Part shown: positions 1,188 to 12,627 of the stretch, piece after piece | How the letters are laid out: each line of letters starts with the position of its first letter | Position numbering within the stretch: position 1 is the first letter of the stretch | Translations under genes and position numbers: made by a program | Notes under the pieces: model-generated | Seen by the model: only the letters and a program-made list of their open reading frames with translations | The model's database searches: none | What the model was told of the DNA's origin: nothing | Source: an uncultured delta proteobacterium | GTDB taxonomy: Bacteria > Desulfobacterota > WTBG01 > CAIYCZ01 > CAIRTM01 | Assembly (NCBI GenBank): GCA_963804955.1 | Contig: CAWDSQ010000030.1 | Coordinates: forward strand, 128,001 to 192,000 | DNA: 64,000 bases | Direction: 5' to 3'

Positions 1188-1959
1188 ATGAAGAAAAAAA
1201 TCTGTCATATGATTCCTGAAGAGGAAAAACAGTGCGTCTGGATGACCAGCGGGCTCATCTCCTACAAGCTCTGCACCCGTGATTATCGCTGCGAAGAGTG
1301 TATTTTCGATCAGGTTATACGCAACGAGGCTGCAGTTGACGCCGTCGCCGGCCACGGCGACGGGCTGTCTGCTGCAGCCTCATTATTCAACTGCCGATTC
1401 CCTGCAGGAACATGCCGCTCTTTTCTATCACAGCGGCCACTGCTGGGCCAAGGTCGAGGATGCCGACCAGGTGCGCATCGGCATAGACGGCATCCTTGCC
1501 CAGATGGTCTCACCGGTCAGGACGGTGGTTCTTCCCCAGATTGGCGACGCCGTGGTGCAGGGTCAAAGCTTTGCCCATATTATTCAGGAAAAGCATATCG
1601 TTGAGCTGGTCTCTCCCCTGACCGGAACGATCCTGTCCGTCAACCAGGGCCTGAAAGCAGCACCTCATACCCTTGCCGCCGAGCCCTGGGGCAGGGGATG
1701 GCTCGTGACGATCAGGCCCGACAATCTGGAGCATGATTTGAAGGCGCTCATGTTCGGCAGAAAAGCCATGGAGTGGTATGAGAAAAAAGAGCATGAGTTT
1801 GCCACGGCGCGGGTTGGCATGCTCAGCCGGCATGAGCCGGAGCTCGGGCCCACTCTGCAGGACGGGGGGGAATTGCTCGCGAGCCTTGCCGATATGCTCA
1901 GCCCCGAGCAGTACGAGCGGATTATGGATGTTCTTTTCCGGCCTGAAGATGCTGCGTGA
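1188..1959 (+). CDS. GcvH-like (glycine cleavage H-fold) protein with Cys-rich N-terminal domain; frameshift near 1375
   Basis: GGAG then ATG at 1188: MKKKICH...CVWMTSGLISYKLCTRDYRCEECIFD, continuing in ORF 1279-1959 with FYHSGHCWAKVE..VRIGID, SPLTGTILSVN and EPWGRGWLV, typical of the H-protein fold. Confidence 0.8.
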
Positions 1960-2479
1960 CCCGCAGCTGCTCCCTGCAGCGGCCGCACATATCCACTGAT
2001 TTCTGATCAATATCCTCCACATATGTCGAATTGACCATAACGCAGCCCGGCTGCCTGCAGTGCAGCAGGCCGAAGGTATGCCCGAGCTCGTGAATCGACT
2101 CCTTCACCAGCCGCTCGGTCAGCACAGTCTGGTTTTCGGGCAGGCCGTAAAATTTGCTGTTCAGCCGGTGCAGGGAGACGGCCGCCGCAATGCCGTCGAG
2201 CTGCGCTTCGCCGAACACAAAGGTGAGAATCGGTATGAACAGATCGACATCGGCAACAGCCAGAACCCGGCTGGCGCCGGGCGGCGGAGCCGCGATGATT
2301 TGCAGCAGTATTTTTGAGGAGTTGTACTGCCGGCGGTTGGGGTCGAAGATGCCTGCAAGGTCAAAGGGCAAATCGACGCAGCGCGTGCGGCAGCCGAAGG
2401 CTGTGTGAATGCCCGCCTCAAGCGGTTTCAGCCAGAAGCGGGAGCCTGTCTGGATGGGAGCTATATAAATACAGGACAT
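1922..2479 (-). CDS. Archaemetzincin-family Zn metalloprotease
   Basis: HELGHTFGLLHC..PGCVM metzincin motif with Cys cluster; RRQYNS and DLF...LTFVFGEA motifs. Confidence 0.9.
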   Translation of the reverse strand: MSCIYIAPIQTGSRFWLKPLEAGIHTAFGCRTRCVDLPFDLAGIFDPNRRQYNSSKILLQIIAAPPPGASRVLAVADVDLFIPILTFVFGEAQLDGIAAAVSLHRLNSKFYGLPENQTVLTERLVKESIHELGHTFGLLHCRQPGCVMVNSTYVEDIDQKSVDMCGRCREQLRVTQHLQAGKEHP

Positions 2480-2501: not shown

Positions 2502-3848
2502 TCATTTTTTCAGGTTGTATTTTTGTATCTTGTTGTACAGGGTCAGGCGGCTGATTTTTAAAATGCCTGCCGCCTGAGCAATATTGCCGCCGGTGCGGTC
2601 GAGTATTTTTTGTATATGGGTTTTTTCAATGTCCTCCATCGAGTCCTCATCGGTTGACCGCGCAGGCCCCAGTAAAAAAGGGAATGACAGGTCGGCCGGC
2701 TGAATCAGCGTGCCTTTGGCGCCGACCATGGCGCGCTCGATAACATTGCGCAGCTCGCGCACATTGCCCGGCCACTCATAGTGCGAGAGCATCTCCAGGG
2801 TTTCCGGGGTCAAATCCGTAACATTTTTATTCATGGACTCTGCGTATTTTTTGACAAAATACCGCGCCAGCAGGGGGATGTCGGCTTTTCTTTCGCGCAG
2901 CGGCGGCAGCACGATGGCAAAAACATTGAGCCGGTAATAGAGGTCCTCGCGGAAGGTGCCTTCGCGCACGGCGTTTTCCAGGTCTTTGTTGGTTGCGCAA
3001 ATGATGCGAAAATCCACATTCAGCAGCTTGTCGCCCCCGAGGCGCATGAACTGCCTTGTTTCTATGACGCGCAGCAGGTCCATCTGCATCTTCATGCCGA
3101 TATTGCCTATCTCATCAAGAAAAACGGTCCCCTTGTCAGCCATTTCCAGCTTGCCCCGGCGGCGGTACAGCGCGCCGGTAAAGGAGCCTTTCTCGTGGCC
3201 GAACAGCTCGCTCTCCAGCAGCCCTTCGGTGTAGGCGCCGCAGTTGATGGTGATGATGGGGAAATAGCGGCGGTTGCTGTTGCTGTGGATCGCCCGGGCG
3301 ATGAGCTCCTTGCCCGTTCCGCTGTCGCCCCGGATCATGACGGTGGAGTCTGTTTTGGCGACCGTTGCGACTTTATCCATGACCTTTTTCAGGGCCGGGC
3401 TGGAGCCCACTATTTCATCGTGGTAGGAGATTTCCTCGATCTGCCGCCGCAGCTGCATGTTTTCCGACAAAAGCCTGCGCTGCTCAACGGCATTCCTGAT
3501 CAGATGCCCCATTTCATCGGGGTCGACGGGCTTGACGATATAGTCGAAAGCGCCCTCCTTGAGCGCCTGAATGCTCGTCTCGACGGAGGCGAAGGCCGTA
3601 ATCATGATGGTGATGATGTTTTTGTCGATCTGCTTGATTCTTCGCTGCAGCTCCACGCCGTCGATGCCCGGCATTTTAATGTCCAGCAGCACGATGTCCC
3701 AGGCGCTGTCCTGGAGCTTCTGCAGAGCCGCGTTGGCGTCTTCGGCGGTATCGACCCGGTAGCCGTCGAACTTAAACCACTTGCTCAGCGCGTCGCGCAC
3801 GGACGTTTCATCATCAACAACCAGTATGCCAATATCTGAGGGATTCAT
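2502..3848 (-). CDS. Sigma54-dependent response regulator (NtrC/AtoC family)
   Basis: Receiver domain (LVVDDE, DIKMPG, KP), AAA+ domain (GDSGTGKE, ESELFGHEKGSFTGA, FREDLYYRL, WPGNVREL), C-terminal Fis HTH. Confidence 0.95.
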   Translation of the reverse strand: MNPSDIGILVVDDETSVRDALSKWFKFDGYRVDTAEDANAALQKLQDSAWDIVLLDIKMPGIDGVELQRRIKQIDKNIITIMITAFASVETSIQALKEGAFDYIVKPVDPDEMGHLIRNAVEQRRLLSENMQLRRQIEEISYHDEIVGSSPALKKVMDKVATVAKTDSTVMIRGDSGTGKELIARAIHSNSNRRYFPIITINCGAYTEGLLESELFGHEKGSFTGALYRRRGKLEMADKGTVFLDEIGNIGMKMQMDLLRVIETRQFMRLGGDKLLNVDFRIICATNKDLENAVREGTFREDLYYRLNVFAIVLPPLRERKADIPLLARYFVKKYAESMNKNVTDLTPETLEMLSHYEWPGNVRELRNVIERAMVGAKGTLIQPADLSFPFLLGPARSTDEDSMEDIEKTHIQKILDRTGGNIAQAAGILKISRLTLYNKIQKYNLKK

Positions 3849-3864
3849 GCGTTACAACTCCTGT

Positions 3865-5321
3865 CTAATGTTTTTCCATATACTGCTGGTTCTGGACCCG
3901 CGGCAGCTTGATCGTGAATTCAGTGCCCCTGCCCATGCTGGACTCGACGCTGATGGTTCCGCCGTGGCGCTGCACGATGCCGTAGACGGCAGAGAGGCCC
4001 AGCCCCAGGCTTTTGTTTGATTCCTTGGTGGAGAAAAAAGGATCGAATATATGGGGCAGAACATCCGCAGGGATGCCCGTGCCGAAATCGATGAGCTTGA
4101 TTTTTACGGCTGTTTTGTCCCGGTAATCGGTACGGATAATTATTTTGTTGTTCGGCGCGAGGCTTCGATGGCGTTGACGATCATGGACACAAGTATCTGC
4201 TGAATCGCTCCCGTATCGCACTGAATGAGATCGTCGCCCGTATCGAGCTCTGCAGCCAGCTCAAGGCTCTTCATTCTGGCGCTGTGGTCGATTACTTTTA
4301 TGCTCACGTCGATGATTTCATTGAGGTGCACCTCTTTGACCTCGCCCATGGTGCGCTTGGCGAACAGCAGCAGGTTTTTGACGATATCGCCGCACCGCTT
4401 GGCCTCATTGGCTATGAGCGTGAGGTTTTCCCGTGTTTCCGCAACCGTTTCGGGCTGCAGGGGCTCCTGCCCGAGGTATTTGGAGGAAAGCTTGGCATAG
4501 GAAAGAATGCCCGACAGGGGGTTGTTGATTTCATGGGCCACCATCGCCGACAGCCGTCCCGAGGGAGGCCATTTTTTCCGTCAGCGTCAGATTTTCCCTT
4601 GTTTTTTTGAGCTCTTCCTCGGCTGCGCGCTGCTGTTTGTGCGTTTTATAGCTGATGCTGATAATGCTGCTCAGCAGGAGCGATATGATCAGGAGAATGA
4701 CTACGGAGAATTTGATGATCTGGCTGGTTATCTCTGCAATTTCGGCTTTTATGTCTTCTATGTAGATGCCGGTGCCGATGATCCAGCCCCAGGGCATAGA
4801 ACCCTTTCACATAGGAAATTTTCGGCAGGATGAGATTCTGGTTATCATAGGATTGCCATTTGTACTGGATGAAGCCCGATCCCTGCGCCTTGACGACATT
4901 GACGAATTCGACGAAAACGCGTTTTCCGTCAGGGTCGGTGTAGTCTGAAAGATCTTTGCCGTTTAGGTCATTGCGGTAGGGATGAATGACCATGCGGGGG
5001 TGCATGTCATTGATCCAGAAATAGTCCTTGACTGCCTGGCCGTAATGGAGGTTTTTAATCTGGTCGATGGCCTGGCGCTGCGCTTCGGCGCGCGTGAGCA
5101 GGCCCTGGCGCTCGTCATTTTCAAGCTTCGCCAGAATATTCCATGCCGAGGTGGTGAGCTCCTGTATCATTTCCCGCTTGCGCTCCAGGCTGGTTTTTTC
5201 GATGGTCGGGATGATAAAGGCGAAAATAACGCGAAATAAACAGAATGAAGGCCAGTATCGTGGGAACGACAATGCGCCACAAAAACGACTTCCAGGGAAA
5301 TGAGATATGCGGAGATATCAT
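3865..5321 (-). CDS. Membrane sensor histidine kinase with single Cache domain (several frameshifts)
   Basis: Fragments: TM + YFWINDMHPRMVIHPY...DPDGKRVF (Cache), PWGWIIGTGIYIED + TM, EKMASLG..VAHEINNPL (H-box), DFGTGI / FDPFFSTK / GLGLS (HATPase). ATG at 5321. Confidence 0.88.
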
Positions 5322-5488
5322 AGCTGTGCACCACTCGCTTGATTTATTCAGCACATAGTCGGTATGTGCGCCGATTGCCGGCAGCCTGTGGGCCTTCACA
5401 TTTGAAATTAACTGTTTTAGTAACCCTTTTCTTAATGCCACTATATGAAAATCAGGGGCATACGTTAATTGAAAAAGGAAAATCCCAG

Positions 5489-5552
5489 CGTCATTCCGGC
5501 TTGTCCGGAATCCTTCCGCTGCGGTGGAAAAGATCCGGACAGCCGGAATGAC
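5489..5552. repeat. Palindromic intergenic element (GTCATTCCGG...CCGGAATGAC)
   Basis: gtcattccggcttgtccgga pairs with tccggacagccggaatgac. Confidence 0.7.
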
Positions 5553-5581
5553 AGTCTGATGTTACGTACGGGGATTGTATC

Positions 5582-6366
5582 TCATACAAAATCAAATGTG
5601 AAGGCCCTGTCAGACAGCTCCCGCGGTCCATCCGGCCGAATGATTTTTAATTTCGCCAGCAGCTTTTCTATAAACGGCGTTTTTTCCCACTCAAGCCTGT
5701 GCTTGATAATGGTCAGCTGGAAATCCGCGTCCAGAAGCCCGAAGCCTTTCCATGCACCCTCCAGGCCATAGTAGGCCGTATGGCTGTCGCTGCAGGAAAA
5801 CCATTTGTGATGATGGCCGAACAGCCACAGCTTCGGCTTGAAATGCGCAGCCAGCTCCTGGCTGCGGGGAAAACCGGTGGCGCCGAAATGGTCCAGGCCG
5901 GGCGTGCTGGGCACGCCGATACCGGTCGGGCAGTCATGGGTCAAAATAATATCGACCTGCTGCCCGGGCAAAGGCCAGGCAGGCATTAATCTGCTGATCG
6001 GTTATGATCGCCCCCTGTTCGGTCAGCATGGAGTCCATATAGGCAGCTCCCCCAAGGGCCAGAAAACGGTAGCCCTCTATGCAGTGAACTGTGCCGCGGG
6101 GCAGATAGGTGAAAAAGGCCTGATACTTTTTGGTCAGCTTCTCAAGAGCATTGAAATCCTCATGGTTGCCGTCGATACAATACAGGGGCCGCATAAAGCG
6201 CTGCCCTTTTTTTATGAAAAAGTCGTGCAAATGGGATTTGTAGAGGCCGAAGTCCCCCAGGTGAATGATGCAGGAGATCTTCATGGCCGAGCACGTTTTC
6301 GGCATAGGCAAGCTGCTGGTTGATGGTGCCGTAGTAGCAATGGGTATCGCAGGTTACCAGAATCAC
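5582..6366 (-). CDS. Calcineurin-like metallophosphoesterase (frameshifted)
   Basis: Motifs DTH, HLGDFG, DGNHED, THDCP, FGHHH across three consecutive fragments; the GTG start overlaps the TGA of the upstream gene (GTGA, 6363-6366). Confidence 0.85.
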
Positions 6367-9307
6367 TGGACACCTCCGATCTGGCCGGTGAAATCATAGC
6401 TCAGCTTTGCCTGGAAATTTTTTATCTGGGAGAAAATTTCCTTGAGCAGCTTTTGCTCGATAGAGGTCAGGTTTTTCGGGGTCACATAATTGTCGGGCTT
6501 TGCGTTTCCCGGCCGCTATTGCCGCAGCCTGAACCTGCAGCCGTATCTGCATGAGATAGCTGTATGCCTGCACCATTTCCTGGTAATTCAGCAGATGTCA
6601 GCACGCGCGCGCTCATGCAGCCCCAGCAGCCGCTCCAGCGTGTTGGTGGCGGGAACGCCGTGCTTGAGGGCGTAGATGCGGGCATAGTCGACAATGGGCA
6701 TCATGGCGCTTTTAATGTCAAAGGCCTTGCGGTGCTCGTCCACGGATTCGACGACAAATTTTCCGAACAGCCCGATCGGCGGGCTGAGCGGCAGAACATT
6801 GCGGGCCAGCAGCTGAAAAAATCTCGGGTTGTCGGCAACCATGGCAGCAAGAAAATCCCGCAGCTCTCCCGCGAGGCCGTCGTCTCCGAAGGCGCAGCGA
6901 AAGTCGAAAAATATTTTTGTTTTCAGGAGGTCTTCAGCCGAAGCCGCATGAATCCACTGGCTGAAATACCGCTTCCATACGGTAAGGGGCTGGCACCACT
7001 GGGGATTTTGCGCCATGTTGTTGCCCTCGCAGTAGTGGTACCCGGCCTGGTTCAGCCATCTGCAGACCATGGCGCCCAGTTTGAGGAAGTATGCCTGTAC
7101 AACCGATGACTCCAGGTCGGCGGCGGTGTCCTCAAAAATAATCGCATTGTCCTGGTCGGTCATGAGGGTCTGTTCCTGCCGGCCCTCGCTGCCGAATACC
7201 AGAAAAGCAAACCGCACCGGGGGCGGGCCCAGTTCCCGGATGGCAAATTCCAGGAGCTTTTGCAGAATCGTGTCGATCACGATGGTGGTCAGATGGTTTA
7301 TGCTTTGAGGCTTTGCGCCGCTCTTGATGAGGGTTGTTATGAGATAGGGGAGAACCTCATTATGCCTGATCACTTCGTCGGGTGATGTGTCATTGCGTAT
7401 CTCCCAGAGCAGCACCGCTGGCGAATACTTCTGAATGGCGGCTATATCCTTGCTGTTGATTAAGCCGATGATGGCGCCATGGGTATCGGTGACGAAAAGA
7501 TGGGCAATGCCCTTATTCTGCATAAGCCACCAGGACTCAAATACCGATGCATTGCCCGGCAGTGAAATAACGGGAGACGACATGATCTCGGCTACCGGGC
7601 GGTCCTCATGCTCGTGCAGGAGCATCACGGCCTTTCTCAGATCATGGTCGGTGATGACGCCGCAGTCCCTTCCCTCTGCATCGCGCACCAGCAGGACCTC
7701 GTTGTGCTGCTGCTCCATCATGCGCACCGCTTCCCCGATCGGCATGCCGGGATGGCATAGTGCCGGCTGGCGACAGGGCAGGCCGCCAAGGGGCTGATTA
7801 TAAAACAGCAGCACCGACTGCGTTTCGGAAAGGAGTTTTTCCCTTTCCTCCTCTCTCATATGCAGCTCAGTAATATCTTCCATGATGCCGTCACAGTATC
7901 GCGGCGACGCCGTCTTCGTCTTCGACCATGACGCCCCAGATGGAAGCGGTAAATACGGAGCCGTCTTTTTTCTTGAGCCTGACGATCTCCCTTTTCAGGT
8001 CTTCGGCAGATGCTTTCGGCTCAAGGGTTTTACGGTCGTCGGGGTTGCAGTACAGGCTTATGACCGGGGTGAGCGAGCAGCTCTTCCTTGCTTGCGTAGC
8101 CCAGCAGTTTCACCAGCGCTGGATTTGCTTCGATAAATTTCGGGTTCGGGCCGATGGTCCGTCGGAAAATACCCACGTTGAGATTGTTGGCAAGTGTTCT
8201 GAATTTTTCTTCGCTGCGGCCCAGGGCATCCTCTGCCTGCTTGCGTTTGGTAATATCGGTTACAACGGCCATGAAGCCGGTTTTGCCGCCGATTTCTATC
8301 GGGGATGTCGACAGAATAACATCTTTGGTTCCGCCTGATTTTGTTTTGAGCTGTGCTTCAAATGTTGCGGGAACCGATTTGCCGGCAAGCAGCTCATCCA
8401 GGAACCGGCTGCTCTGCTGGTCGTTTGATTCAGCCAGAACCGTGCGCACCGGCATGCCTGCGAAACTCGCTTTTATCGTATTCCAGCATGGCCGCTATTG
8501 TCTGATTGGCGTGCATGTAGGTTCCTTCAAGGGCCATGAGCATGCCTTCGCCTGCCGATTCGACAAGGGTGCGGTATTTTTCTTCGGAATCGCGCAGGGC
8601 CTGCTCCGCCAGCTGCTGCTGCTTGAGCGTGGCGTAGCTTTGCCTGATGATGCTCGCCAGCAGCAGCGAGATTATCAGCAGGATGAAAAAGGAAATTTCA
8701 AAAAGGTTGCGTGTTAGTTCGCTGATTTCAGCCTGGACGTCGTCGATGTAAATGCCGGTTCCGATGACCCAGCCCCAGGGCTGGAAACCTTTGACATAGG
8801 AGAGTTTCGGCAGAATGCGGTCCTCTTTATCCTTCCACTGCCACATGTACTGCATATAGCCGGCGCCCTGCCGCTTCACCAGGTCGACAAAATCCACAAA
8901 AACCCGCTTGCCTTCAGGGTCGGTGTAATCGGAAAGGTCCTTGCCATTGAGGTCGGTCCGGTACGGGTGGATAACCATGCGCGGGTGCATGTCGTTTATC
9001 CAGAAATAATCCTTCATCTCCTGGCCGTAGTGCAGGTTCTTAATCTGCTCGATGGCCTGGCGTTTGGGCCTGCGGCCGCGTGAGCAGGCCCTGCTGCTTC
9101 ATCATGCTCGAGCTTCGCGAGAATGTTCCAGGCCGAGTTGGTCAGCTCGCGGATCATTTCCCGCTTCCGGTCCATGCTGCTTTTTTCAATGGCGGGGATA
9201 ATAATGGAAAAGAAGGCGATGACAAACAGCGCTATGGTGACAGCCGTCGGGAAAACGAACCGTGCCGCAAATGACTTCCACTGGGTTGATATGTGCGGGG
9301 CAAACAT
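6363..9307 (-). CDS. Multidomain membrane protein: TM-Cache-TM, PAS repeats, CBS pair, GlnD-like nucleotidyltransferase (DUF294 / DUF294_C); frameshifted
   Basis: Consecutive fragments 9014-9307, 8430-9017 (Cache, SEEKYRTLVE), 8030-8455 (PAS, DITKRKQAE), 6588-7883 (CBS GVITDHDL/IMSSPV; FGSEGRQEQTLMTDQDNA; NPQWCQPL..W; IFFDFR; FDIK...MPIVD). C-terminus LKEIFSQIKNFQAKLSYDF ends at 6363. Confidence 0.8.
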
Positions 9308-9318
9308 CGCGTAAACCT

Positions 9319-9500
9319 CTAACCGGCTGTTGGAAAACGCCCATCTGCTGCGTTGCGCTCATCGTGCTTCACTGCGGCGTACAAAAAGTACGCCTCATTT
9401 CGCATGATTGCCTGCAAGCAGGTGTCACAGACAGCGCGCGCCTTGCATCTGAGCATTTTTGAACAGCCTTCTCCTGGTGACTTTTTCAACACCCTGCTAA
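9319..9500. mobile_element. MITE-like element, copy 1
   Basis: Termini taaccggctgttggaaaa / tttttcaacaccctgcta are imperfect inverted repeats; body is similar to 30551-30844. Confidence 0.7.
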
Positions 9501-9692
9501 TCCTCTGCTGAGCCCATACTGCTGCTGCCGTGTGCAAGACAGAATACACGGGGCACCGCATTCCTGTCAAGAAGCACAGGCAAACAATTCGTCCCCGGCT
9601 GACGCGGCCGGCTCGTTAAGAAAACGGGGGAGAACACCCCATTTGCTGTTCTCCCCCGTCACCGTATGCATCAGCGCAGCCTTCCTGTCCGT

Positions 9693-11597
9693 TCAGGCGG
9701 CGGCTTTTTTCTGCGAAAACAGCGATACGACAATAAGCGTTATATAGCCCAGGGGTATTGAAATGATGCCCGGGTTGTCAAGCGGTATCGGCGCTGAGGC
9801 TTTGGGCAGGCCGTACAGATCAACATAGGTGCTGGGCGACAGCAGAATGATCCCGAGCGCCGTGACCATGCCGACCACGATGGATGCCGCGATGCCCTTG
9901 GAGGTCGTCTTTTTCCAGAACAGCAGCATGGTGATGGCCGGCAGGTTTGCCGAGGCGGCAACCGCAAAGGCAAGGCCGACCAGAAATGAAACGTTCATGC
10001 CTTTGCATAAAATGCCCAGAATAATGGCGATGACGCCAACGACAACAGCGGCGATTTTGCCTGCCTTCACCTGCCCCTTGTCCGTCATCTCTATGCCAAG
10101 AAATCCAGTCATCAGATCATGGGCCACCGCGCCGGAGGCGGCAACGATGAGCCTGAAACCGTTCCCAGAACCGTTGCAAAAGCAATGGCGCAGATGCAGG
10201 AGAAGATGGTGATGCCGAAGTATTTCGCCAGCAGCGGCGCCGACATATTGCTGCTTTCCATGTCAAGAACACCCGTCATCATGGCGCCAAGGCCCATGAA
10301 CAGGGTCAGAACATAGAAAAAGCCGATTGAGCCGATGGCCACGATGGTTGACTTGCGGGCATCCTTGGGGCTCGAGACCGTGTAGTAGCGGATGAGAATA
10401 TGGGGCAGGGCCGAGGTGCCGAAGAACAGGGCGATCATGAGCGAAATGAAATTCAGGCGCGACATGAAGTCAGCTCCCTCGTCGACCTTGAACTTCAGGC
10501 CCGGCCGCATGATGTCTGGAGCCTGCCGTGGGGTTCTGCCGCCAGATGGTGACCTTGTCGCCGCCGTCCTTGACAACTGCTTTGGCAAAGCGGACCACTT
10601 CGGACCGCTCGATGGTGGCCAAAAATTCAAAGGGCCCGAGAGCGCCGGTTTTCTGGACCTCTTTGCCGTCGACGATGATTTTGCTGGCATGGCCGACCTG
10701 GTAGAACTTCCTGGCATCCTTGGGCTCGCCGTTATACAGGGTTTTGCCGTCGGCGGTTTTTGTCATGGAAAGGGCTTCCTTGAGTACCGGTCCGCCGTCT
10801 TTGGCGCTCACATGCCACCAGGTGGCAATGCCGTTCTGTGTGAGTTTTGCAAAGAGGGCTTTGCCGTCCTTGAAGGTGCCGGCGACGGTATATGCCGGGT
10901 CTGCAACCGCGGTAACGGCGTCATTTGCCACAGTGGCGTTTATGGTTTTAAACTTGTGATAGTTTGCATCCGGGGGGGTGTTAATGCCGTTGACGAAAAT
11001 ACTGATGGTGAGAATGGTTGAAAAAACAATCAGCAGGCCGCCCTTGATGAACTGCACATAGGTGGTTGATGTCATGCCCGCGGTTGCAACTATAAAGATA
11101 ACGATGGCGCCGACAAGGATAACCCCCATGTAGTGGGGAAGCCCCAGCAGCGGGGTTACCAGGTCGCCTGCGCCGACCATCTGGGGAATCAGGTAGCATA
11201 CGGAAACAACCAGCGTGCTGATGGCTGCCGTGAGCATGATTCCCCTGGACCCGAACTTGTAGTTGAGCGCATCGGTGAAGGTGTATTTGCCGAAGCGCTT
11301 AAGCGGTTCGGCCACAACAAACAGGGCAACGACCCAGCCGGCAAGGTAGCCGATTGAATACAGAAAGCCGTCATAGCCGTCAAAGGCGATCATGCCGCAG
11401 ATGCCGAGAAATGACGCGGCTGAAAGATAGTCGCCGGCAAAGGCTATGCCGTTAACGCCCCAGTGAATATTGCCGCCGGCGGCATAATAGCCCTTGGAGG
11501 ACTGTGTTTTTTTTGCAAAGTATGAAGAAAGCCCGAGCACGCCGAGTACAAAAGCTATAAATATGCCAATTGCAAATGGTGATGCTGCATAAATCAT
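9693..11597 (-). CDS. actP: Cation/acetate symporter ActP (SSS family), frameshifted, with a large soluble loop
   Basis: NGIAFAGDYLSAASFLG, TTYVQFIKG, GTSALPHILIRYYTV, AIAFATVLGTVSG and LAFAVAASANLP motifs. Confidence 0.9.
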
Positions 11598-11612
11598 TGT
11601 TCGTCTCCCCTT

Positions 11613-11882
11613 TTATTTGTTTAATTCATATTCTTTTTTGGTGCACATGTGGTTGTAGATAACACCCATTATGATGGCTAAAAGAATCAGGCCGAAACCG
11701 TACACGCAGGCAAGATTCAGCCCCGCCATGACGATAATGCCCATGGTTTTGGGGCTCATTACATTGATGACGATAAAGCCGGCATAAACCAGCACATAAA
11801 ATATAAATAAATATATCCCGAGCCGCGCCTTATACTCGGAAGCCCTGTCCTCACCCCATTGTGTTGCTGGTCCATGTCCCAT
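11613..11882 (-). CDS. DUF485/YjcH-type small membrane protein, partner of ActP
   Basis: 89 aa, two TM helices, directly upstream of actP. Confidence 0.85.
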   Translation of the reverse strand: MGHGPATQWGEDRASEYKARLGIYLFIFYVLVYAGFIVINVMSPKTMGIIVMAGLNLACVYGFGLILLAIIMGVIYNHMCTKKEYELNK

Positions 11883-12408
11883 TTTTTTTCTCCTTGTTAA
11901 GTGAATAGGTAAAGAAAATGAACAAACTGACTGTCTCTATATTTCACAATTTAAACACTGTCAAGTGGAAAAATGAAAATACGTAAAAAAAATATACATA
12001 CACATGTTCTCTTTGTGAACAAAATTCTAAAAAAATATTTGCCGGACTGCCGTTACTTTTAGTATGCCGTAGGGGGATATGCTGTTTAAGGGGCACCGTT
12101 TATGCCGAAAGACGGTTTTTAAATAGTATTTAAGTTATTTAAGATTTTTAGTTGATGTGTTTCAATGGCGGGAGCGGATAAGAAGGCTGGAGAAACTAAT
12201 CGGTTTTTGTGTATACTTATTGATCAAATCTTGGATTATTGTGTTCACAATGTATGCATTGATGTTTTAGGGACATTTTTTACCTTAGGCCTCGTTTTTC
12301 TGTACATCTCGAGCCCTTCAGCACTTCGCTCAGGGCAGGCTTCCGGGAGCAGATCTTTGTTTTTGGAGTAGATTGATGCGCGCGGCGAACCTTCAGACTC
12401 AGTTGCTC

Positions 12409-12627
12409 TCACCTCCCCTTAATCCCTCCCATCAAAGGCTGTGTCATAATTAAAATAAATGTCATTCTGAGGAGCCGCAGGCGACGAAGAATCTCGTTGC
12501 TTGATGATTATATGAGAAAGGGCGAATGGCCATTCGCCCCTACGCAACGCCAGAGATCCTTCGTTTCACTCAGGATGACCGCACTATTTAATTGCTACAC
12601 AGTCTCTTGCGGGGGGAGGTGGGGCTC
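12409..12627. repeat. Nested palindromic intergenic repeat cluster
   Basis: aggctgtgtcataatt...aattgctacacagtct encloses gtcattctgagg...ctcaggatgac, which encloses gggcgaatggccattcgcccctac. Confidence 0.7.

Follow-up and report, generated by a model that had tools for sequence, protein, structure and literature searches.

Proteins of the DUF294/COG2905 family were predicted to regulate by nucleotidylation by Aravind and Koonin in 1999 (as cited in PMC5715377), and in a preprint of 2026 their role is still described as unclear (bioRxiv 10.64898/2026.09.07.749794). The closest described members are soluble COG2905-type proteins, such as those of Pseudomonas putida (PP_0354/PP_0353) and P. fluorescens (Pflu5625). 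In P. putida, deletion of pp_0353, coding for a DEDDh, RNase T-like protein, impairs growth on pyruvate, as does deletion of actP-I, and deletion of pp_0354, coding for the cNMP-CBS-transferase protein, does not; the authors speculate on mRNA decay by the exonuclease-like partner (PMC9927547). The 2026 preprint repeats this pyruvate pattern and proposes protein modification for PP_0354. Here we describe a predicted transmembrane receptor form of this family, together with the metallophosphoesterase and ActP-like transporter genes beside it, in a stretch of 64,000 nucleotides from an uncultured delta proteobacterium (GCA_963804955.1, contig CAWDSQ010000030.1, positions 128,001 to 192,000; the window, whose own numbering is used throughout). 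We found no description of a Cache-fused form or of DUF294 chemistry in the literature consulted, subscription papers and supplements being outside its scope.

A second group of known systems, GlnE, GlnD and the DrrA/SidM-SidD pair, is related to the receptor by predicted fold. GlnD carries HD plus ACT domains. GlnE has two nucleotidyltransferase (NT) domains, G-X11-D-X-D is the motif of SidM and of the glutamine synthetase (GS) adenylyltransferase, and SidM and SidD are encoded next to each other (all PMC12409994). The receptor resembles these proteins in a predicted GlnE/DrrA fold over about 300 residues, in the G-X11-D-X-D motif and, as for SidM-SidD, in that a putative writer and eraser are encoded together. 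Unlike them, it has a single transferase domain at 12-13% identity and no ACT or HD domain, it is anchored in the membrane with its sensor outside, and its candidate erasers have other folds; genes for PII or GS were not met among the neighbors that recur. With the soluble COG2905-type proteins the receptor shares the CBS pair, DUF294 plus DUF294_C, the motif, the link to ActP-type transporters and a single hydrolase partner. The N-terminal cNMP domain of those proteins is replaced by two transmembrane segments around a sCache_2 domain, followed by two PAS domains (TM-sCache_2-TM-PAS-PAS), and this exchange would make the enzyme a transmembrane receptor. Their DEDDh partner, which soluble cNMP-type relatives have no more than 6 kb away (15 of 28 and 16 of 25 loci), is likewise exchanged, for a calcineurin-like enzyme here and for a PHP, HD-GYP or TIM barrel protein in receptor relatives; no match to the DEDDh profile was found in the genome G000, and a calcineurin-like gene stands at the window locus instead. 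By domain content the receptor can be placed in the DUF294 family, with a chemistry predicted to be GlnE- or SidM/SidD-like, and to judge from its sequence it is neither a classical COG2905 protein nor a GlnD/GlnE orthologue.

We propose, as somewhat better than an even chance, that the receptor, as a one-component device, and its coupled phosphoesterase bring about a carboxylate-gated, reversible transfer of nucleoside monophosphate (NMPylation) to the transporter complex. The Cache domain would bind acetate, propionate or pyruvate outside the cell, the signal would pass via the second transmembrane helix, helical linkers and the PAS domains, and the CBS pair would read ATP/AMP as an energy input. 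The GlnE-fold domain would then transfer NMP, probably AMP, onto a hydroxyl side chain of a protein, most likely the neighboring ActP-like importer or its small subunit, and the coupled phosphoesterase would hydrolyze the mark off. Our preferred direction, which is the weakest step of the proposal, is that modification would shut the importer when the acid is plentiful and the eraser would reopen it; an importer inhibited by the writer and released by the eraser would be expected to give the pyruvate phenotypes seen for pp_0353, pp_0354 and actP-I. The more specific statement, that a transmembrane receptor AMPylase gated directly by an acetate-like acid outside the cell modifies and so switches the symporter and that unrelated phosphodiesterase folds have supplied its eraser on five or more occasions, falls slightly short of an even chance in our judgment.

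All parts of the locus lie on the minus strand in the order read by the first-pass annotation, namely yjcH, actP, receptor and phosphoesterase. The yjcH-like small membrane subunit (DUF485; 11613..11882, 89 residues, Pfam PF04341 with E 3.7e-08) has the length of its copy in the intact locus L002, with no indel, and is followed by an ActP/MctC-like sodium:solute symporter (9693..11597, about 633 residues, matched by Pfam SSF in three pieces). The receptor, with the domain order TM-sCache_2-TM-PAS-PAS-CBS-CBS-DUF294-DUF294_C from Pfam and orthologue alignment, occupies 6363..9307, and its orthologues have 978 residues. It overlaps the calcineurin-like metallophosphoesterase (5582..6366, about 252 residues, Pfam Metallophos) in the GTGA that had been pointed out, at 6366-6363 by our reading, where the receptor TGA (6365-6363) shares bases with the GTG start of the phosphoesterase (6366-6364).

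In the window the receptor is broken into pieces, which had been taken for one frameshifted gene coding for about 980 residues, and this view is borne out. The C-terminal piece of 431 residues has 1619 matches to longer proteins; the best 120 of these comprise 83 single Cache-PAS-CBS-DUF294 proteins, mostly of 960-1025 residues, and 37 soluble cNMP-CBS-DUF294 proteins. The intact orthologue P0001 (978 residues) could be aligned from residue 1 to 978 across the reading frames of the window, and the single ORF (open reading frame) of the orthologues speaks against separate Cache and DUF294 genes. Compared with L002, which is 91% identical to the window at the DNA level, the receptor has eight extra single bases (9099, 9062, 8462, 8073, 7906, 6607, 6596 and 6507) and the phosphoesterase two (6281 and 5959). 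Contigs of four independent runs leave a base out at, or within 1-2 nucleotides of, at least eight of the ten sites; the independent-contig matches listed do not include 8462 and 8073, so that at least six of the eight extra receptor bases are lacking there, and one such contig (X1 record 1, 5790-6713) bridges the junction of receptor and phosphoesterase. The alignments show a single ORF behind the fragments at 9307..6363, and its breaks are most likely due to errors of assembly (reads), because orthologues are intact, because independent contigs are without the extra bases and because the symporter gene (two single-base frameshifts, near 10517 and 10155) and other genes near the locus are frameshifted too. 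The sequencing runs listed as containing the locus include no RNA run, a result that has no bearing on expression.

The ten frameshifts of the window copy might also be taken as signs of a decaying pseudogene, or the neighborhood might be incidental. We find this barely credible in view of the independent contigs and the intact orthologues, of the strain copy on contig C29, whose breaks are mostly at other places, and of a receptor neighborhood that is conserved across more than 10 phylum labels. The copy on C29 was also considered as a paralogue and rejected, since C29 aligns with C30 in the same gene order over its full length, at 86-97% identity, and represents a co-binned strain. C29 (L076) is 35 kb long, and other contig pairs are alike, suggesting that the bin holds strain haplotigs.

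The catalytic module (DUF294 plus DUF294_C; approximately 6375..7350) scores above the Pfam cut-offs both in the window piece (153.8 and 76.8 bits) and in P0001 (151 and 152 bits). The GS...DxD motif had been called intact, and it is: FGSEGRQEQTLMTDQD, of the G-X11-D-X-D type, is read at 7196..7149 by three-frame translation. GSxGRxEQxxxxDxD is present in 149 of 151 aligned domains, and G704..D716-Q-D718 is invariant in 69 of 69 sequences. Searches of the PDB with the transferase sequence found no solved relative. A structure model of the module (pLDDT 93.0, pTM 0.91) matches the N-terminal domain of GlnE (1V4A; Z 27.4, root mean square deviation [rmsd] 2.9, 309 residues aligned), the C-terminal domain of GlnE (3K7D; Z 25.9) and DrrA (6YX5; Z 24.1), and Foldseek ranks the matches in the same order. 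These three are full-length matches (rmsd 2.9-3.7, 299-309 residues aligned) that take in the NT domain and the GlnE-type helical bundle, and all other entries among the matches listed are partial, with Z of at most 11.2. The scans of P0001 with Pfam and NCBIfam found no HD, ACT or second NT domain.

All three full-length matches are transferases that act on protein hydroxyl groups, and for this reason the modeled fold favors protein NMPylation over the making of a nucleotide signal. The 50 rows of matches listed include no CD-NTase of the cGAS/DncV type, which does not speak against such a relationship, and CCA and poly(A) polymerases are likewise missing from the fold matches listed. The next matches that combine an NT domain with a helical bundle are ANT(4') and AAD(9), which would fit a nucleotidyltransferase acting on a small metabolite in the manner of aminoglycoside transferases, with the partner releasing the product. 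We consider this quite improbable, as both match much more poorly (Z 7.9 and 6.9, rmsd above 6, TM score 0.33) and as the receptor architecture would seem to suit a signaling output better than bulk chemistry.

The first-pass annotation supposed that the phosphoesterase takes the place of the exonuclease-like partner, and this idea was strengthened by a survey in which five unrelated hydrolase folds fill the slot, one at a time. We analyzed 75 GTDB loci and 76 metagenome loci, taken in each case from the 80 best among some 610 confirmed matches, by six-frame scans with partner profiles that were derived from the GTDB loci, with P0109 and P0113 added for PHP. They hold 65 receptor-type genes in 64 loci, of which 46 with both flanks were counted and 19 with short flanks left out. 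Exactly one adjacent or fused hydrolase was found at 40 of the 46 (calcineurin 20, PHP 11, HD-GYP 5, TIM barrel 3 and DEDDh 1), none at six, and in no case (0/46) were two kinds found at one receptor gene. The PHP partner is fused or lies just upstream, and the HD-GYP partner is a GAF-HD-GYP gene. With short flanks included, a partner was found for 52 of the 65 genes, and in the metagenome set, which was held out from profile building, at 13 of 17 genes with both flanks. Grouping at 70% identity gave 42 groups (31 with a partner, 6 without and 5 truncated). As a background control, 564,934 bases distant from the transferase were free of matches to the four profile families, to which this control is confined; the labels HD-GYP and TIM were assigned later from Pfam. 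One fusion of transferase and calcineurin domains was met among 593 candidates (P0122) and not counted, as its sequence looks frameshifted.

The catalytic motifs of the partners are intact. The calcineurin motifs D-x-H, GD, GNHE, H147 and GHxH are 95-100% conserved in 23 orthologues, and the metal motifs can also be read in the window frames. Calcineurin, PHP and DEDDh partners alike have intact metal motifs, as does the HD-GYP protein (whose GYP is intact too), and the TIM barrels keep their conserved His, Glu and Asp and are nearest to MJ1311 and the phosphodiesterase CbiR. The PHP partner is nearest to a 3',5'-nucleoside bisphosphate phosphatase and the RNase RNM; the best PDB match of the calcineurin partner is Dbr1 (E 3.9e-05, residues 61-199 only), and the ESM Atlas returned generic Metallophos clusters only. 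On a quick tree, unrooted and without an outgroup, that takes in every sensor-type row whose domain is of sufficient length and, of the 72 soluble rows, 12, the partner label changes at least 17 times over eight labels, compared with 48.7 times when shuffled. Partners thus track clades and yet have been repeatedly exchanged. The neighbor itself is conserved: directly downstream of the receptor the phosphoesterase is found in 12 of 13 relatives' loci, and the 13th locus stops at a contig edge.

That five hydrolase folds replace one another argues for cleavage of a phosphoester bond by the partner rather than for degradation of mRNA. DEDDh, RNase AM-like PHP and Dbr1-like partners do have nuclease folds, and effects on mRNA or expression have been suggested (PMC9927547; 10.1101/072470), so that tailing and trimming of the transporter mRNA by the pair deserves mention. 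It is nonetheless highly improbable: the top fold matches listed include neither a CCA nor a poly(A) polymerase, the Pfam scan of P0001 found no RNA-binding domain, and HD-GYP and CbiR-like partners are ill-suited to RNA processing. A nuclease fold is compatible with an eraser of protein marks, as RNase Z is a nuclease able to remove AMP from proteins (PMC12663964). Alternatively, the product of the transferase could be a diffusible signal, either a dinucleotide (cyclic or linear) or an Np(n)N, which the partner degrades and a CBS or cNMP domain reads. Every partner fold has members that are small-nucleotide phosphodiesterases, and free swapping of erasers would be easier with a small substrate; this explanation is distinctly unlikely to us when set against full-length fold matches that are all protein-directed (Z 24-27 versus at most 11.2 for the others), and no separate effector gene recurs in the neighborhoods.

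Other observations from the surveyed loci concern gene content. In Desulfobacterales, the soluble form has a DEDDh partner (L006:3252-5441 and relatives) of about 720 residues, some 530 of which, at the N terminus, have no Pfam match. Two or three DUF294 genes of differing input types stand side by side in L116, L124 and L050, and G033 has four DUF294 genes; weak CBS pairs and long branches mark two of the Cache forms. L027, labeled a cyanobacterium, is nearly identical to the Desulfocapsaceae locus L022 and probably is a binning contaminant.

Protein NMPylation of the transporter complex is also suggested by the distribution of the transporter. The gene had been called actP, and an ActP/MctC-like transporter is indeed present, although not as a formal ActP equivalog: with the NCBIfam models the orthologue scores 436.7 bits for MctC (cut-off 670) and 397 bits for ActP (cut-off 750), and TIGR02711 is not reached (317.8 versus 1099.25 bits), with the MctC and ActP models still the best matches. 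Of the receptor genes, 25 of 32 in the GTDB set and 15 of 29 in the metagenome set have an actP-like gene no more than 6 kb away. The proposed co-occurrence of transferase, phosphoesterase and ActP-like transporter was recovered among 30 relatives of G000, whose loci are in several cases the very sequences of the GTDB set and which, as kin, are not independent: 13 have both DUF294 and the transporter, 17 have neither, and the phosphoesterase occurs in those 13 plus, as a broken copy, in G014. In four of these genomes (G002, G010, G015 and G016) the transporter is on a different contig from DUF294. Among 41 relatives of a Bacteroidales genome DUF294 occurs in 11, all with an adjacent hydrolase and all with the transporter in the genome (11/11 each); eight have one calcineurin subfamily, two have another on the opposite strand and one is a soluble form with DEDDh. 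The exceptions in this set are G051, with the transporter and without DUF294, and G064, with a phosphoesterase at a contig end.

Several findings weigh against the proposal as a whole. No adjacent hydrolase was found at six of the 46 receptor genes (L062, L063, L116, L124, L130 and L135), the HD-GYP and TIM partners come from one and two clades and were labeled post hoc, and the partner folds include enzymes of nucleotide signals or RNA (HD-GYP, RNase AM-like PHP and Dbr1-like). Direction cannot be read from the fold alone, whose best match is the removing domain of GlnE. With regard to the target, no actP lies within 6 kb at 7 of the 32 GTDB receptor loci, and no universal acceptor Tyr stands out among the conserved residues of the transporter; among the candidates in cytoplasmic loops, Y37 is 96% and 78% conserved in the two transporter groups, and Y404/Y405 are not retained in the second. 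Price et al. report a "COG2905 (RNAse T domain protein)" to be cofit with the transporter subunit, a name that leaves the gene meant ambiguous (10.1101/072470), and if it is the transferase, modification would activate. Finally, growth on propionate is reduced by deletion of PP_0353 or PP_0354 and not of actP-I (bioRxiv 10.64898/2026.09.07.749794), which points to an additional target.

This last phenotype, together with the want of a clear acceptor residue in the transporter and the presence of acs near many soluble cNMP-type homologues, would also agree with the same writer/eraser chemistry being directed at another protein of carboxylate metabolism, such as acetyl-CoA synthetase, a regulator or the receptor itself, with the transporter merely coregulated. 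Such a target is unlikely, in our view, though to be taken seriously: acs is rarely near the receptor type, in contrast to actP with its frequent positions within 6 kb, and the genome profile of the transporter equals that of the transferase exactly in the 30 relatives.

The sensor half of the receptor supplies a predicted ligand. Two hydrophobic segments flank the Cache domain at residues 22-40 and 202-220, approximately, and are predicted to form transmembrane helices 1 (9188..9244) and 2 (8646..8702), with Kyte-Doolittle peaks of 2.72 and 2.82 in P0001, from which their coordinates were mapped. The sCache_2 domain itself (8715..9190, Pfam) has as its closest solved relatives PscD (5G4Y, E 3.5e-37) and Adeh_3718 (4K08, E 4.8e-35). 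PscD has acetate, glycolate, propionate and pyruvate as ligands and contacts propionate through seven residues, Tyr90, Trp92, His103, Phe126, Tyr143, Trp145 and Lys156 (PMC5062169). All seven have identical equivalents in the receptor (Y100, W102, H113, F136, Y153, W155 and K167), the window copy reads YWHF.YWK with none of the seven missing, and all are kept in 57 of 59 transferase-fused Cache domains. The Cache domain is thus predicted to bind acetate-like C2-C3 carboxylates, with an uncertain preference for ligand size because Met129 of PscD corresponds to Phe139 in the receptor. In contrast to PscD, McpP, Adeh_3718 and MctS, the output of the receptor is a nucleotidyltransferase instead of a chemotaxis or kinase domain; the model of the histidine kinase MctS matches receptor residues 37-240 with E 5e-28, below its cut-off. 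Between sensor and transferase lie the two cytoplasmic PAS domains (approximately 7903..8590; Pfam PAS, profile matches, and TIGR00229 in two stretches) and, N-terminal to the transferase, the CBS pair (approximately 7440..7787; PF00571, E 9e-20, in two stretches).

If the proposal is true, the receptor would represent a receptor class with nucleotidylation (AMPylase) output, sodium:solute symporters would be subject to posttranslational control and several families of de-NMPylases would be new. Next to actP, Pseudomonas and relatives carry genes annotated as "DNA polymerase III epsilon/RNase T-like", and these would then code for protein de-NMPylases. For DUF294/COG2905, the variant described here points to C2-C3 carboxylates as the predicted ligand, to the ActP-like importer as a candidate target and to the phosphoesterase as a candidate eraser.

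Beyond the phosphoesterase, the minus strand continues with a frameshifted sCache_2 histidine kinase (5321..3865) and a sigma-54 response regulator (3848..2502). The Cache domain of this kinase is 72% identical to that of the receptor and keeps all seven carboxylate contacts, and the same kinase follows in several relatives; on these grounds one ligand may drive transcriptional and posttranslational outputs. At L077:6352-8526 (minus strand; G000:C26) there is another histidine kinase of the Cache-PAS-PAS type, also with these pocket residues, followed by a sigma-54 regulator and a gene of the acetyl-CoA hydrolase/transferase cluster. Near the sigma-54 regulator of the window are genes for a glycine-cleavage-H-like protein (1279-1959, plus strand) and an M54 archaemetzincin-like peptidase (1922-2479, minus strand). 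Between actP and the receptor (9320-9475) lies a 150-bp repeat with inverted ends and 23 BLAST matches in the genome, which has very high depth in other runs and looks like a MITE (miniature inverted-repeat transposable element) or a REP-type (repetitive extragenic palindromic) element. Repeated intergenic elements are also present at 5485-5560 and 12300-12510, with 14 and 21 matches in the genome, and the former folds as a long hairpin.

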